Virus record (IMG/VR): IMGVR_UViG_3300007177_000114
Source of the DNA: a virus
Lineage: Duplodnaviria > Heunggongvirae > Uroviricota > Caudoviricetes
Reading direction: 5' to 3' (one strand)
Length of the DNA stretch: 64,000 nucleotides
The stretch's first letter is position 1. Each line of letters begins with the position of its first letter. The notes below the pieces were generated by a model. The model was not told where the DNA came from. It did no database searches and saw only the letters and a program-made list of their open reading frames with translations. Position numbers and translations under genes: made by a program. This document shows, piece after piece, positions 42,438-48,296 of the stretch.

Positions 42438-43022
42438 ATGAAGAAATTAAAAGATATTACACAGACTAAAGCACTCAAAAATGCCGGTGATGCTTACGTT
42501 CCAGACGAGCAACATCATGCTAAAGAGTATACTAGTTCTTCATCAGATTTAAATACAAATTTGATTCGAGCTCATAAAACAAAACATGATAATTATCCGC
42601 ATAAGATTGATTCTTATTATCATCAGTCTATTCATCATCTTGATTCGGCCACTAAAAGACCAATCGGACATCATATACACTTATATTCAGGTCTAGGTTT
42701 CAATCCTGCACATATGAAAAATAAGAATGGTCATGTTCATCTACCGGCTTATACGTCTATGACACATGATAAATTTAAAGCGCATGGATTTTCTATTGAT
42801 AAAAGCTATAAGCATGAAGATGGTGATAGACACATTCTTCATCTTCATATGAAGAAGAAAGATAAAGGTCTTCATGTTTCACATTTTTCTCACTATTATG
42901 ATGAGCATGAAACTATTCTACCACGAAATACAAGAATTAAAATCCATAAAAAGCCAACAGTATACAATGATTACGGAAGAAAAGTACATGTATGGCACGC
43001 ACATATAATTCATCAGGATTAA
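42438..43022 (+). CDS. His-rich ADP-ribosyltransferase-like protein (Alt/VIP2-type fold)
   Basis: Y-T..S..LN..L helix, then LYSG (canonical YRG), YTSMT (STS-like) and EHETILPRNT (ExE.LLPR.T). Confidence 0.7.
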   Translation: MKKLKDITQTKALKNAGDAYVPDEQHHAKEYTSSSSDLNTNLIRAHKTKHDNYPHKIDSYYHQSIHHLDSATKRPIGHHIHLYSGLGFNPAHMKNKNGHVHLPAYTSMTHDKFKAHGFSIDKSYKHEDGDRHILHLHMKKKDKGLHVSHFSHYYDEHETILPRNTRIKIHKKPTVYNDYGRKVHVWHAHIIHQD

Positions 43023-43023
43023 C

Positions 43024-43431
43024 ATGAACGACGATGATCCTATTGGTAAAGCTTTAAATTTACCAACAAATTCAAATAATGCTATAGCAAAAATAATAGC
43101 AAATGCTAAAAATGACTCAGCAAAAGAAGATTTTACTTTTGCTAGAGCCAATATGCGTGAAGTGATCCAAAATGGATCTGATGCTATTGAGAGAATGGCA
43201 CAAATTGCCGATCAGTCTCAAAATGCTAGAGACTTTGAAGTATTATCCAATTTAATGACAACTGTTGTCAATGCCTCTGAGAAATTATTGAGAATTCAAA
43301 AAGCAATCCGTGAAATTGACAAATCAGATGAACCTCATGATCAAGAGACAAAGCAACAAGTAACTAACAATTTATTTGTTGGATCAACTGCAGAACTTCA
43401 AAAAATTATAGCAGACCTAAAGAACAAATAA
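43024..43431 (+). CDS. gp16: Terminase small subunit
   Basis: D..FAR.N...VI..G..A......A.......FEVL..L; NNLFVGSTAELQK. Confidence 0.9.
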   Translation: MNDDDPIGKALNLPTNSNNAIAKIIANAKNDSAKEDFTFARANMREVIQNGSDAIERMAQIADQSQNARDFEVLSNLMTTVVNASEKLLRIQKAIREIDKSDEPHDQETKQQVTNNLFVGSTAELQKIIADLKNK

Positions 43432-43455
43432 TCATTCCTTATAAGGTCAACACCT

Positions 43456-43484
43456 ATTATACCAATAAAGAGTACCAATGTCAA
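43456..43484 (-). promoter_or_regulatory. Perfect sigma70-type promoter, antisense, overlapping the gp17 start codon
   Basis: Minus strand: TTGACA (43484-43479), 17 nt, TATAAT (43461-43456). Confidence 0.65.
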
Positions 43485-44389
43485 CAAATATATTTGAACA
43501 ATTTAAATCTTATAATGGTAATCCAAATTTAAAACGATCTGGAGTTGCCGTTAACTGGACACCTGATATTATTGCAGAATATGCAAAATGCTCACAAGAT
43601 GTAATCTACTTTGTAGAAAATTATATGAAAATTATCAACGTGGATCGTGGTTTAATCAATTTTGAACCGTATGATTATCAACGTGAGATGCTCAAGTCGA
43701 TGACCGAAGAGCGCTATACTATTATTGCTACTGCTAGACAGGCAGGTAAGTCTACGGTTACAGTAGCATTTATTCTTTGGTATATTCTTTTTAATTCAGA
43801 TAAAACTGTAGCATTACTAGCAAACAAAGGTGAAACTGCTCGTGAAATTTTAGGTAAGGTTCAGTTAGCATATCAACATTTACCAAAATGGCTTCAGCAA
43901 GGTGTCACGGAATGGAATAAAGGTTCTTTTGAACTTGAAAATAATTCCAGAGTTATTGCGGCTGCTACATCTTCTGATAACATTCGTGGTTATGCTATTA
44001 ACTTGATCTTTATTGATGAAGCAGCATTCATTGAAAACTGGGATGAATTCTTCACCTCAGTATATCCTACTATCTCTTCCGGTACTTCAACTAAGCTTAT
44101 TCTTGTTTCAACTCCAAATGGTTTAAATCACTTCTATCATATTTGGACAAATGCACAACTAGGTAAGAATTCATATAAACCTATTATGGTTCATTGGTCT
44201 GCTGTTCCAGGTAGAGATGAAGCATGGAAACAAGCCACTCTTGCTGCAATGAACTTCGATACACAGAAGTTTGATCAAGAATATTGCATTACTGGTGATA
44301 TGAAAGTAACTATAAAAAATGAATACGGTGAAATACAAAAAATAACAATTGAAGAACTTTATATGATGTTAAGTTTCTTGGATTTATAA
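43478..44389 (+). CDS. gp17: Terminase large subunit N-extein (ATPase, aa 1-269) fused to split-intein IntN (aa 270-303)
   Basis: ARQAGKST Walker A, LIFIDEAAF Walker B, STPNG, ending FDQEY/CITGDMKV...IEELY. Confidence 0.93.
   Translation: MSTNIFEQFKSYNGNPNLKRSGVAVNWTPDIIAEYAKCSQDVIYFVENYMKIINVDRGLINFEPYDYQREMLKSMTEERYTIIATARQAGKSTVTVAFILWYILFNSDKTVALLANKGETAREILGKVQLAYQHLPKWLQQGVTEWNKGSFELENNSRVIAAATSSDNIRGYAINLIFIDEAAFIENWDEFFTSVYPTISSGTSTKLILVSTPNGLNHFYHIWTNAQLGKNSYKPIMVHWSAVPGRDEAWKQATLAAMNFDTQKFDQEYCITGDMKVTIKNEYGEIQKITIEELYMMLSFLDL
44285..44386 (+). mobile_element. Split intein N-fragment (34 aa)
   Basis: Block A: CITGDMKVTIKNEYGEIQKITIEELYMMLSFLDL, then stop. Confidence 0.88.
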
Positions 44390-44410
44390 ATAGTATATCC
44401 AAGAAACTTA
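44370..44410 (+). promoter_or_regulatory. 14-bp perfect hairpin with late promoter TATAAATA (44385-44392) in the loop, abutting RBS AGGAG
   Basis: TAAGTTTCTTGGAT (44370-83) / ATCCAAGAAACTTA (44397-410); AGGAG at 44410-14; ATG at 44423. Confidence 0.8.
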
Positions 44411-44422
44411 GGAGTATTTTAA

Positions 44423-45085
44423 ATGTGGTGTGTATATTTAATAATAAGGGATGATGGTAAACAATATATAGGCAAAACTAAGATAGAAACAATAAAAAGA
44501 CGTATGAATGCTCATAAAAAATCAAAAAGATTTGCAAATTATGAATTTACATATCAAATAATTGCCCAAACAACAACACACGATGAAGTATTGATTAAAG
44601 AAGAATATTATATAGATCTATATAATACATACAAAGATGGTTTAAATGCAACAAAAACCGGTAAAGGGTGTGGTCATAACTCACCCAATTTTTCAACATT
44701 AGGTATGAAATTCAGTGAAAAACATAGAGAAAATATGAGAAAAAATCATTGGTCTAAAACTGGTAAATATGATCAAACTGGAAGAAAACTCTCTGATGAG
44801 ACAAAAAAATTAATTTCAACTAGTAAAAAAGGTAAAGTTTCATTTACAAAACTAAATGAAAGTGATGTTCGAAATATTTTATTGTTATATTTTTCAAAAC
44901 CCATTTTTGAAAATGTAGATAAAATTCAAAGAAATGGATTACCGCTATCATATGATAGAGCTTTTAGTAATTATTATCATAAAACTTTTAATATATCAGT
45001 GACAGCGCTCAGAAATATTATACAAGGTAAAGTAAAAATATGGCAACCGATATTATCAGAAATAACAGAAAAATACAAATTTTAG
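44423..45085 (+). mobile_element. Free-standing GIY-YIG homing endonuclease between the terminase halves
   Basis: CVYLI.......YIGKT...KRRM..H catalytic module; two NUMOD3-like repeats (FSEKHRENMRK, LSDETKKLIS); C-terminal HTH-like KLNESDVRNI. Confidence 0.85.
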
Positions 45086-46176
45086 GCCCGAATGGATTTG
45101 TAGATTTTACTGGTATTTCTAGAAAAAAAGTTGATTCATTTTTAAAAATAACATTTCCAAATGGTGATATTTTAAAATGTACTGATGATCATAAAATATT
45201 TTATGATCATCAGTTTATAGAAGCAAAAAATTTACCATTTCATACTGAAATTATAAAAGATGTACAATTTGTATATGATCCTATAAATGTAGGTGATGAT
45301 CATTTATATATGGTTGATAATATTATCAACCATAATTGTGTTGAATTCCAAGGTAGTTCTGGTACTCTTATTGCTGGTTGGAAATTAAAACAACTACAAG
45401 CTGCAATCCCTATTCATCAACATGACGGACTATCAGTATATGAAAATCCAGAAAAAGGTCATACTTATATATGTATAGTCGACGTATCAAGAGGAAAAGG
45501 TTTGGATTATTCAGCATTTAGTATAATTGATGTTTCCTCAATGCCTTATAAGCAAGCATGTTCTTTTCGTAATAATTTAATAGCACCTATAGATTATGCA
45601 GAAGTAATCTATAGAGTTGCTAAGTCATATAATACTGCTGCAATCTTAGTAGAAGTAAATGATTTGGGTGAACAGATTTCCACATCATTGCATTTTGACT
45701 TTGAATATGAAAATCTACTTTTTACCGAAAATGCTGGTCGTAGTGGTAAAAAAATATCTTCTGGTTTTGGTAATAATGTTGATAAAGGTATCAGAACTAC
45801 AAAAAGCGTAAAATCTGTTGGATGTTCTATTTTAAAACTATTAATAGAACAAGGTCAATTGTTAATTAATGATAAGCAGACTATTTCAGAATTATCAACT
45901 TTTTCTAGAAAAGGTGTATCATACGAAGCAGAACCTGGAAATCATGATGATATGGTGATGGGTTTGGTTCTATTTGCTTGGTTATCAGATCAAACATATT
46001 TCAAGGATATTACGGATATAAATACTCTTGCTAGACTTCGTGAAAAGACTGATGAAGAGATATCCGCTGAATTGTTGCCATTTGGTTTTGTTGAAGATGG
46101 TCGAGAAGAAGAATCTGTTATCGACCTTACACCTAGAGGAAATTGGTTCTTTCAGGTAGAAGATAGTAATTTATAA
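45040..46176 (+). CDS. gp17: Split-intein IntC (aa 1-99) fused to terminase large subunit C-extein (nuclease)
   Basis: ILGPNGF, CTDDH (block B TxxH), YDPINV (block F), INHN/C; then CVEFQGSSGTLI, VDVSRGKGLDYSA, HDDMVM. Confidence 0.93.
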   Translation: MATDIIRNNRKIQILGPNGFVDFTGISRKKVDSFLKITFPNGDILKCTDDHKIFYDHQFIEAKNLPFHTEIIKDVQFVYDPINVGDDHLYMVDNIINHNCVEFQGSSGTLIAGWKLKQLQAAIPIHQHDGLSVYENPEKGHTYICIVDVSRGKGLDYSAFSIIDVSSMPYKQACSFRNNLIAPIDYAEVIYRVAKSYNTAAILVEVNDLGEQISTSLHFDFEYENLLFTENAGRSGKKISSGFGNNVDKGIRTTKSVKSVGCSILKLLIEQGQLLINDKQTISELSTFSRKGVSYEAEPGNHDDMVMGLVLFAWLSDQTYFKDITDINTLARLREKTDEEISAELLPFGFVEDGREEESVIDLTPRGNWFFQVEDSNL

Positions 46177-46179
46177 ATA
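46172..46179 (+). promoter_or_regulatory. T4-type late promoter for gp18
   Basis: Exact TATAAATA overlapping the gp17 stop. Confidence 0.8.
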
Positions 46180-46223
46180 GAAAAGAAATTTAAGTTTATC
46201 TTCTTTAGAAAGGAGTCCTAAAT

Positions 46224-48296
46224 ATGGCGTTCCCTGTAAGTCCTGATGTAAATGTGACCGAGGTTGATTTAACAACAATCGCACCCAGCGTGGCTACCTC
46301 AACTGGTGCTATTGCTGGTGTGTTTAACTGGGGTCCGATTGGTGAAAGAGTTTCAATTGCTACTGAAAGTGATCTTGTAACTTTCTTTGGTAAACCAAAT
46401 GCAAATAACTATGAAACATTCTTCACAGCAGCTAATTTCCTATCATATAATAATTCTTTATTAGTAGTAAGAGCTGCAAATACCACAAGTATGAATGCAA
46501 ACGGTACATATGGTGCTTTTGCTAATGTCGGTGCTGTTACAAATACAGCAAATCAAACTGTAAAAAATAGTGTAGACTACGAAACAAATAAACTAACATT
46601 TGATGCAAATGTGGTTTACGTTGCAAAGTATGCCGGTGCTCTAGGTAATTCTCTACGAGTTTCAGTGTGTGATAGCGTAAATGCATATCAATCAAACGTT
46701 TCACTAGTTCAATCAGAAGTAAGTAACAACGTAGTAGGTACATTTACTTTAAGCGTCGGCTCAAATACAGCAACTGTTCAATTTACTGGTGATTCAGCTG
46801 CAGCTGCTAATACTTTTGCTGCAAATTTTGCTGCATCTTTCAGCACCGGTGATTTAATTGCTATTGGTAATACCACTGTTGGAACTCAACTTCTATCCCT
46901 AGCATCTGTTTCTGGGCCAAATTCATCAACATCAAATGTTGTGATGCAGTTTACAGGAATCTATACACTTTCTTCTGATTTCAGTGCAAATACACAACTC
47001 ACAAGAAGCTGGGAATATTCCAATCTAGTTGATACTGCACCAACTACATCACAGTTTGTAACAAGTTTTGGTAATACAGCAGCAGTTGATACAATGCATG
47101 TTGTAGTAGTAGATCAAGATGGTAAATTTACCGGAATCAGTGGTCAAGTACTAGAAGTATTTAAAGATATGTCTAGAGCCACAGATGCTAAGTCTGTAGA
47201 TGGTGCTTCAATTTATTACAAGAAAGTTATTAATGAAGGATCAAGATTCATCTGGTGGGCAAATGATAGAGCAAATGCTGTAAGCAATACAGCAGCAAAT
47301 ATTACCAGCTCAACAAATAATTCTGCTCTACGTCTTGATTTTGTTGGTGGCCAAGATGGATTCACTGAATCAAATGCCCCAGTTTCAATCCTAGCAACTG
47401 GATATGATCTATTCAATGCTAAAGAAACTTCAGACATTTCTCTTGTTCTTCAAGGTAAGCCAACCGGTGGCACCACATCAAGTCAAGGTTTAACAGTAAA
47501 TAATTTCCAACTTGCAAATTATCTAATTGATAATATTGCTTCTGTAAGAAAAGATTGTGTAGTACTAATTACACCAGATGATGCTCTTGCTAGAGCAAAT
47601 GTTGGACAGGAAGCTAAATATACAGTAGCATGGGCAAATGTAATTCGTGATACATCATATGCAATGATTGATTCCGGTTATAAATACATGTATGATCGCT
47701 ACAATGATGTTTATCGCTACGTTCCTCTAAATGGTGATATTGCTGGTCTAATGGCAAGAACAGAAAGCACAAATGATGCTTGGTGGTCTCCTGCAGGTTT
47801 CAACCGCGGTCAAATCAAGAATATTGTTAAGCTTCGTTGGAATCCAATTAAGGCAGACAGAGATACACTTTACAAGAATGCAGTAAATCCAGTTGTGACT
47901 TTCCCTGGTCAGGGTACCGTTCTATTTGGTGATAAAACTGCAACAAGAAAACCATCCGCATTTGATAGAATCAATGTTCGTAGATTGTTTATTGTTCTTG
48001 AAAAAGCTATTTCTGAAGCAGCAAAATATTCACTATTTGAATTTAATGATGAATTTACAAGATCACAATTCAGAAATCTTGTCAATCCTTATCTTCGTGA
48101 AGTTCAAGGTCGCCGCGGTATTACAGACTTCCTAGTTGTCTGTGATGGGACAAATAATACACCTGAAAGAATTGATAGAAATGAATTCTGGGGTGATATC
48201 TATATCAAGCCAGCCAGATCTATTAACTTCATTCAACTAAACTTTGTTGCTGTTCGCACTGGTGTCCAATTCTCAACCGTAGTCGGTCAATTTTAA
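46224..48296 (+). CDS. gp18: Tail sheath protein
   Basis: WWSPAGFNRGQI; QGTVLFGDKT....SAFDRINVRRLF; IKPARSINFIQLNFVAVRTG. Confidence 0.96.
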   Translation: MAFPVSPDVNVTEVDLTTIAPSVATSTGAIAGVFNWGPIGERVSIATESDLVTFFGKPNANNYETFFTAANFLSYNNSLLVVRAANTTSMNANGTYGAFANVGAVTNTANQTVKNSVDYETNKLTFDANVVYVAKYAGALGNSLRVSVCDSVNAYQSNVSLVQSEVSNNVVGTFTLSVGSNTATVQFTGDSAAAANTFAANFAASFSTGDLIAIGNTTVGTQLLSLASVSGPNSSTSNVVMQFTGIYTLSSDFSANTQLTRSWEYSNLVDTAPTTSQFVTSFGNTAAVDTMHVVVVDQDGKFTGISGQVLEVFKDMSRATDAKSVDGASIYYKKVINEGSRFIWWANDRANAVSNTAANITSSTNNSALRLDFVGGQDGFTESNAPVSILATGYDLFNAKETSDISLVLQGKPTGGTTSSQGLTVNNFQLANYLIDNIASVRKDCVVLITPDDALARANVGQEAKYTVAWANVIRDTSYAMIDSGYKYMYDRYNDVYRYVPLNGDIAGLMARTESTNDAWWSPAGFNRGQIKNIVKLRWNPIKADRDTLYKNAVNPVVTFPGQGTVLFGDKTATRKPSAFDRINVRRLFIVLEKAISEAAKYSLFEFNDEFTRSQFRNLVNPYLREVQGRRGITDFLVVCDGTNNTPERIDRNEFWGDIYIKPARSINFIQLNFVAVRTGVQFSTVVGQF

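Follow-up and report, generated by a model that had tools for sequence, protein, structure and literature searches.

A terminase gene divided around an endonuclease gene

The 64,000-nucleotide stretch of DNA in IMG/VR virus record IMGVR_UViG_3300007177_000114 (Caudoviricetes), analyzed here in full and referred to as the window, carries its large terminase gene in two pieces with an endonuclease gene between them. The original prediction, made from the letters of the sequence, described this locus as an ATPase half ending in a short N-terminal intein fragment (IntN), a free-standing homing endonuclease, and a nuclease half beginning with a long C-terminal intein fragment (IntC). All of its coordinates for the three open reading frames (ORFs) were reproduced exactly, and the coding parts of the locus are as follows.

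43478-44389, plus strand: N-terminal terminase ORF, 303 amino acids (aa)
43478..44284, plus strand: N-extein, gp17-type terminase ATPase domain, 269 aa, with Walker A GKST, Walker B IDEAAF, and an STPNG motif
44285..44389, plus strand: IntN, 34 aa from Cys1 (block A, CITGD), coding at 44285-44386, plus the stop codon at 44387-44389
44423..45085, plus strand: free-standing GIY-YIG/NUMOD3 homing endonuclease ORF (44423-45085), 220 aa; the IntC ORF, in another frame, begins within it and shares its final 46 nt
45040-46176, plus strand: C-terminal terminase ORF, 378 aa
45040..45336, plus strand: IntC, 99 aa, with C47, block B T48..H51, block F D80 (YDPINV), and block G H98-N99
45337..46176, plus strand: C-extein, starting with the +1 Cys, gp17 nuclease (RNase H-like) domain, 279 aa, then stop

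Both halves are recognizable pieces of a gp17-type large terminase. The N-terminal half matches Pfam PF03237 (Terminase_6N; E = 3e-20) and, in a PDB search, the T4 gp17 ATPase structures 3EZK, 2O0H, and 3CPE (E = 1e-68). The C-terminal half matches Pfam PF17289 (Terminase_6C), and its nuclease domain finds the RB49 and T4 gp17 structures 3C6A, 3EZK, and 3CPE in the PDB (E = 4e-42). Given these domain matches on either half, the break lies at the hinge that links the two domains of the packaging motor, the ATPase and the nuclease.

The insertion is exact to the base

Uninterrupted relatives served for comparison as DNA (L001 to L003, related loci with an uninterrupted terminase gene) and as protein (P0002, P0003, and P0010, contiguous metagenome terminases of 548 aa). 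When residues 1 to 269 of the N-terminal half are joined in silico to residues 100 to 378 of the C-terminal half, the product has 548 aa and aligns without gaps over its full length, with 98% identity to P0002 and P0003 and 93% to P0010. At the DNA level, collinearity with the empty alleles L001 to L003 runs through 44284, stops where the Cys1 codon (44285-44287) directly follows FDQEY, and resumes from 45340; the window has 1052 nt plus TGT where the three relatives have the single codon GAA. The boundaries of the insert coincide to the base with the 1052-nt alignment gap against three relatives, and the layout is thus far beyond chance.

The residue that follows the insertion (position +1) is Cys in the intein-bearing alleles (the window, L004, L005, L007, and L008) and Glu in the empty ones; T4 gp17 has Thr at the aligned position. 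The gapless 98% match agrees with the 548-aa spliced terminase that had been predicted. The "normal gp17 junction" expected along with it has to be amended, since the joined protein carries a Glu-to-Cys scar. Across relatives, the site is empty in L001 to L003 and P0002/P0003 and occupied in the window, L004 to L006, and L084 to L087, that is, the insert shows a presence/absence polymorphism.

Independent contigs carry the occupied allele and an empty one

The source of the window is a metagenome, and strains related to each other are found together whether they have the insert or lack it, a setting in which the layout might be an assembly chimera of two strains. Independent Logan contigs from three studies, however, span every junction with 0 to 3 differences. 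Three of them have 0 differences: X5 record 25 spans the extein/IntN junction, the stop codon, the hairpin described below, and the start of the endonuclease gene; X3 record 20 spans the overlap of the endonuclease and IntC frames; and X1 record 4 spans the IntC/extein junction. Several unrelated assemblies share the layout, and we give a chimera next to no chance. As for the contiguous ORF in the reads that the original prediction had held up as its counterevidence, the independent contigs show the split layout at all junctions.

Might the terminase gene simply be broken, a dead allele in a defective phage genome whose intein-like flanks are decaying remnants? The genome is known from metagenome assemblies alone, with no plaque-forming isolate, which leaves some room for this view. 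Against it, both ORFs are intact and retain all ATPase, nuclease, and intein motifs, the layout is kept with intact frames in many diverged lineages, and contigs from at least three studies contain the allele, at depths similar to those of the rest of the gene. We regard a dead allele as very unlikely.

Two of the runs that carry the occupied allele also contain a joint from 44284 to 45343 with GAAGTA between. This joint comes from a related strain with an empty allele, so that occupied and empty alleles are present side by side in the same samples. A different joint was seen in short contigs of X1 and X2, which connect 44392 to 45527 (1134 nt skipped) with a 24-nt side and undetermined letters between; it could be another allele or strain, a repeat, or a short-unitig artifact.

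The flanks of the endonuclease gene encode a split class 1 intein

IntN consists of a conserved core, its first 29 aa, and a tail of 5 aa (SFLDL) that is encoded in the 5' arm of the hairpin. The sole PDB match of a 39-aa IntN piece was CatN (6DSL_A; E = 0.019), with residues 1 to 29 aligned to residues 4 to 32, and L004, L007, and L087 have homologous IntN tails, as does the contiguous intein of P0102. For IntC, the best PDB match was 6DSL_B ("Consensus engineered intein CatC"; E = 2.4e-12). An AlphaFold model of IntC, made with 21 homologues, has a pLDDT of 83, and 6DSL_B is again its best match among solved folds (TM score, 0.78); each of the other 49 among the 50 listed PDB fold matches is an intein or an intein-like HINT domain. 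In the fold alignment, identity to the Cat consensus is ∼30%; it is visibly higher in HMMER alignments. These matches bear out the short-N/long-C geometry of the AceL-TerL/GOS-TerL class that had been claimed for this locus.

Three motifs named in the original prediction are also in place: TxxH at T48 to H51, YDPINV with D80, and HN/C at H98-N99-C100, where Cys100 is the +1 residue and is followed by VEFQGSSGTLI. Among 21 homologous IntC sequences that are 35 to 62% identical, C47, H51, D80, H98, N99, and the +1 Cys are invariant, and the T48 position is mostly Thr, with a few Ser. That the catalytic residues do not vary in this set indicates selection on splicing chemistry. With a Cys1 nucleophile, TxxH, the block F Asp, His-Asn followed by the +1 Cys, a HINT fold, and a precise in-frame insertion, the element is a class 1 intein. 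It belongs to the AceL-TerL/GOS-TerL/Cat class by its natural split after block A, the location of block B on IntC, and the homology of both fragments; having block A on one fragment and block B on the other is what defines the class (PMC11766414, PMC2677866). By tblastn, no second copy of the intein pieces, of the endonuclease, or of three other TerL intein types was found in the 64-kb window.

The two fragments are predicted to associate. A complex of IntC (residues 1 to 106) with residues 262 to 303 of the N-terminal half scored 0.65, versus 0.16 for the best control, a result that attests to likeness with the solved complex 6DSL rather than giving independent proof. Of 78 solved complexes, 51 reached this mark, as did 2 of 108 mismatched pairs. 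Subject to the same likeness, agreement among the three runs covers at least 81% of contacts, the partner has a pLDDT of at least 71, and Cys1 and its neighbors touch block B and block F.

The main rival reading accepts all of this anatomy and proposes that the intein halves serve as a noncovalent dimerization handle, either without splicing or with splicing too inefficient to matter. Such a role would suit a break that falls exactly at the ATPase/nuclease boundary, where each half is an autonomously folding domain; fragmented phage enzymes that are not spliced are known, for example, the NrdA of Aeh1 (cited in PMC2677866 and PMC3045599), and the complex prediction speaks to binding and is silent on chemistry. 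What counts against it is that the residues needed only for chemistry (Cys1, the block B His, the block F Asp, the terminal His-Asn, and the +1 Cys) are all present, that those borne by IntC stay invariant in 21 diverged homologues, and that the change from Glu to Cys at +1 is specific to intein-bearing alleles. Moreover, members of the family splice in vitro (PMC11766414). Mere association of the halves is, in our judgment, unlikely, and trans-splicing is the preferred reading.

The endonuclease gene and its control region

The product of the gene between the intein halves matches Pfam PF01541 (GIY-YIG; E = 3.5e-9, 37.3 bits against a cutoff of 22.6), PF07460 (NUMOD3; 22.4 bits against a cutoff of 20.4), and PHROG 314, "homing endonuclease" (E = 2e-16); a PDB search with the protein gave chance-level matches only. 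The GIY..YIG pair of the protein is followed by Arg, His, Glu, and Asn in what we take to be the usual order, judged by their positions against I-TevI. Related endonucleases sit at the same place in other terminase genes. That of L004 is 39% identical over its full length (E = 5e-38), L084 to L087 have GIY-YIG genes of 175 to 229 aa at the equivalent position, and in Vibrio phage VP-1 this terminase site carries an in-frame fusion of IntN with a 29%-identical GIY-YIG domain.

Three features lie at the junction of the N-terminal half and the endonuclease gene.

44369..44411, plus strand: RNA hairpin found by folding, with a 15-bp main stem, extending across the stop codon of the N-terminal half and up to the ribosome-binding site of the endonuclease gene
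44385..44392, plus strand: TATAAATA, the T4-type late promoter consensus, in the hairpin loop
44410..44414, plus strand: Shine-Dalgarno sequence AGGAG of the endonuclease gene, 8 nt before the ATG, abutting the 3' arm of the hairpin

The minimum free energy of the hairpin is −21.3 kcal/mol (z = −4.7), and none of 200 shuffled sequences folded as well. Five related loci were folded (L004 and L084 to L087), and each has a hairpin in the equivalent position with a different stem sequence. All five carry the loop motif (A/T)ATAAATA, as TATAAATA or, in L004, AATAAATA, and have the ribosome site in or at the 3' arm. Only the hairpins of the window and L004 are clearly more stable than shuffled sequences; the other four have z scores of −0.8 to −1.3. 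A hairpin, often with TATAAATA, is reported in PMC2677866 for 15 of 16 fractured-gene endonucleases, and that paper reads it, by reference to mobE of Aeh1, as restricting endonuclease translation to late transcripts. By analogy, the hairpin and promoter may control endonuclease translation at the window locus as well.

A strong hairpin at the stop codon of the N-terminal half, together with the frequent location of GIY-YIG endonucleases of T4-like phages in group I introns, could also point to an insert that is removed or bypassed at the level of RNA or translation, either as a group I intron carrying the endonuclease gene or by ribosomal bypassing. An Rfam scan of 43000-46600 with permissive filters found no intron match up to E = 10, only chance-level matches, and L004 and L007 gave no Rfam match up to E = 0.1. 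On either flank, the insert codes for a genuine intein half that continues the extein frame, and only 30 nt separate the two halves in L007/L008, leaving no space for an intron. These results argue strongly against an intron or a bypass, which we hold to be extremely improbable.

Long palindromes within the insert

Three perfect palindromes were located in the insert.

45181..45214, no strand assigned: perfect 34-bp palindrome in the IntC coding sequence, starting from the block B Thr codon
45309..45334, no strand assigned: perfect 26-bp palindrome in the IntC coding sequence, with its end in the His-Asn codons of block G
44606-44627: perfect 22-bp palindrome

They are the three longest perfect zero-spacer palindromes of the whole 64-kb window, and all of them fall within the 1052-nt insert; in first-order Markov simulations of the insert, 0 of 2000 had an arm of at least 13 nt. 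In each IntC palindrome, one arm encodes a catalytic block (TDDH of block B or INHN of block G) and the other arm an adjacent variable stretch. The palindromes are confirmed in independent contigs, and short assembly contigs break at the 34-bp one. We did not find them in the IntC regions of L004, L007, or L084 to L088, and this absence from relatives rules them out as a feature of the family. They may be products of template-switch mutation or have a local function.

States of the insertion site in relatives

Seven related loci, five of them distinct (L004 to L006 and L084 to L087), have the same three-gene layout with a homologous GIY-YIG gene. L007 and L008 have the split intein without an endonuclease, and P0102 has a contiguous intein at the same site. 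The description of this intein class as rare did not survive the search, as at least 20 distinct IntC-nuclease halves are present among the top 120 database matches and seven loci share the layout. Together, five states are seen at one site: empty (98% extein identity), contiguous intein, split without endonuclease, split with a free-standing endonuclease, and an endonuclease-IntN fusion. These states are plausible steps in the origin and spread of atypically split inteins.

Related atypically split inteins were also seen elsewhere in TerL, and the cultured phages that carry them include coliphages, Campylobacter phages, and Vibrio phages. VP-1 (MH363700), Krischvirus kaaroe (MN850574), and Fletchervirus CPX (JN132397) have TerL inteins with a short IntN and a long IntC, 33 to 36% identical to the IntC of the window. 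VP-1 shares with the window the FDQEY insertion site and a homologous GIY-YIG domain, which, unlike in the window, is fused to IntN. In kaaroe and CPX, by contrast, the insertion is at Walker B (IDE|C .. SHN|CAF).

Several details of these relatives are recorded here in their own right. The cultured phage VP-1 (Ackermannviridae; L083, 337-3679) has an additional contiguous intein at the Walker A site, and at its hinge site a separate ORF comes after the IntN-GIY-YIG fusion; this ORF opens with a short IntC (∼61 aa), and its annotation reads only "terminase like family protein." In the Escherichia phage kaaroe (L081, 742-3853), IntN is fused to a TnsA/endonuclease-I-like nuclease in an ORF annotated as "hypothetical protein." The Campylobacter phage CPX (L082, 2495-3823) has an IntC-terminase half without an adjoining N-terminal half. 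In L004 (1199-3340) and L005, the N-terminal half has 713 aa because Walker A is occupied by a second intein (GK|C .. SHN|S). The terminase frame of L004 stays open for ∼400 codons across a 258-aa NUMOD3 endonuclease ORF in another frame (L004:1596-2372). From the sequence, the endonuclease gene of this Walker A intein looks like one overprinted out of frame.

The contig of P0102 (L088:1187-4488) holds a single terminase gene with three intein insertions: a split intein at Walker A; another split intein, ahead of Walker B, whose halves flank a SegE-like GIY-YIG ORF; and, at the QEY|C hinge site used in the window, a contiguous mini-intein homologous to IntN and IntC. In L087 (778-1386), the 202-aa ORF immediately before the N-terminal half encodes another, divergent terminase-ATPase-like protein; it has Walker A and B motifs and is 25% identical to the N-terminal half of the window.

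Genomic context

The locus lies in a T4-type late-gene block on a long contig, with complete gp15-gp16-gp17-gp18 synteny. The neighboring genes are as follows.

Upstream of the small ORF at 42438-43022: gp15 homologue
42438-43022, plus strand: His-rich ORF, 194 aa, between the gp15 homologue and the small terminase gene
43024-43431: small terminase
46224-48296: tail sheath gene

The His-rich ORF matches PF03496 (ADP-ribosyltransferase exoenzyme; E = 7e-13) and is a phage ADP-ribosyltransferase-like gene within the late structural block. A second TATAAATA, at 46172-46179, overlaps the terminase stop codon 45 nt before the tail sheath start and is consistent with a gp18 late promoter. No near-identical phage genome was found among deposited sequences; the best DNA matches are cyanophage and Pseudoalteromonas phage genes for terminase or capsid, 64 to 74% identical. 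An identity look-up of the C-terminal half of the window likewise gave no record.

Proposed mechanism

We consider it very likely that the 1052-nt insert is a composite selfish element at the terminase hinge, made up of a split class 1 intein and a GIY-YIG gene, which is compensated by trans-splicing to a 548-aa terminase and spreads by homing. Two polypeptides would be translated, an ATPase-IntN protein (303 aa) and an IntC-nuclease protein (378 aa). The 34-aa IntN would dock into the open, nearly complete HINT fold of IntC, and class 1 chemistry (a thioester at Cys1, transfer to Cys+1, and Asn cyclization) would yield the 548-aa terminase, with Glu to Cys as the only difference from intein-free orthologues at the junction. 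We infer splicing from the conserved residues and from relatives that splice (PMC11766414). As the large terminase is essential, propagation of the phage should depend on protein trans-splicing.

The endonuclease is predicted to cut intein-free terminase alleles of coinfecting relatives, and repair would copy its gene along with both intein halves. The insertion would destroy the target site, and the intein would render the insertion into an essential gene harmless. Translation of the endonuclease would probably be limited to late transcripts that start at TATAAATA within the hairpin; on read-through terminase mRNA, the hairpin would abut or occlude the ribosome site. If this mechanism is true, the locus would be a clear case in nature in which an intein renders a selfish element harmless.

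Several observations weigh against parts of this proposal. TATAAATA occurs at chance level in the whole window (11 copies versus 10.4 expected), and the window stem stops just at AGGAG without covering it, a weaker sequestration than in L004 or L085. The IntC half has a weak Shine-Dalgarno sequence (AAGG/GGTAAAG, ∼12 to 15 nt upstream) and starts within the endonuclease ORF. The empty-site joint is built on short unitigs with a shorter side of 20 nt, and the relative concerned is ∼86 to 93% identical rather than the identical strain. Finally, no RNA run carrying the allele was among those listed.

A more far-reaching version of the proposal, to which we assign a low probability, would have the late promoter in the hairpin also head the IntC-nuclease transcript, with trans-splicing as a temporal gate on the terminase and the palindromes as part of the control. 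If so, the packaging nuclease would be joined to the ATPase only late in infection, and the IntC palindromes would be RNA structure or a protein-binding site. On this reading, the presence of occupied and empty alleles in the same water samples would point to an invasion that has not yet run its course.

Comparison with known systems

Fractured terminase genes and their atypically split inteins have been described before. In 2009, Dassa, London, Stoddard, Schueler-Furman, and Pietrokovski (Dassa et al.; PMC2677866) described a gp17-type fractured terminase whose source was a freshwater lake. As described there, the Lake Gatun "Terminase" locus resembles that of the window in its adjacent same-strand ORFs, its split intein with a free-standing endonuclease between the halves, its TATAAATA hairpin upstream of the endonuclease gene, the overlap of the endonuclease and IntC frames, and its freshwater source. 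The fit of the intervening GIY-YIG gene to this fractured-gene arrangement had been proposed for the window, and the free-standing ORF at 44423-45085, between split-intein halves on one strand, agrees with it. Unlike the Lake Gatun locus, the window locus is complete and lies in a long contig, its IntC has 99 aa rather than 122 aa (PMC2677866), and empty-site, endonuclease-free, contiguous-intein, and fused-endonuclease relatives can be compared with it.

A second precedent is mobE/nrdA of the Aeromonas phage Aeh1 (Gibb and Edgell), where, according to PMC2677866 and PMC3045599, a free-standing endonuclease likewise splits an essential T4-like gene and a late-promoter hairpin controls endonuclease translation. 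Unlike at the window locus, the NrdA halves have no intein and assemble noncovalently, and the endonuclease is of the HNH type (PMC2677866, PMC3045599).

The intein itself has well-characterized relatives. AceL-TerL, GOS-TerL, and Cat are reported to splice in vitro and have been characterized biochemically, kinetically, and structurally (PMC11766414; PDB 6DSL); the original work is credited in PMC11766414 to Thiel et al. 2014, Bachmann and Mootz 2015, and Stevens et al. 2017. GOS-TerL is the terminase intein of Dassa et al., and Cat is a consensus of the GOS-TerL and AceL-TerL family (PMC11766414, PMC2677866). A full-text literature search pairing "atypical split intein" with "terminase" returned no paper. 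Like the window intein, these three are hosted by a T4-type large terminase and have a short IntN with block A only and a long IntC with blocks B, F, and G. The Cys1/Cys+1 pair of the window intein is the one found in AceL-TerL and Cat. IntN and IntC measure 34 and 99 aa in the window, compared with 25 and 104 aa in AceL-TerL, 37 and 115 aa in GOS-TerL, and 30 and 104 aa in Cat. The likeness to AceL-TerL and GOS-TerL is drawn through homology to Cat.

The short IntN had been put forward as a new protein-engineering tool. It is indeed another short IntN, but its value is incremental beside those of AceL-TerL (25 aa) and Cat (30 aa), and a shorter natural one is known in PolB16 (15 aa; PMC10189870). 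Its practical value is modest: a temperate freshwater phage supplies another natural short-IntN candidate with Cys1 and Cys+1, which could be screened alongside AceL-TerL, GOS-TerL, and Cat for splicing rate, orthogonality, or extein tolerance and opens no new question. Thus, the window locus is a well-documented further member of a class already described, in an arrangement that is common. What it adds to the known systems is a complete genomic context and a set of evolutionary states at one site.

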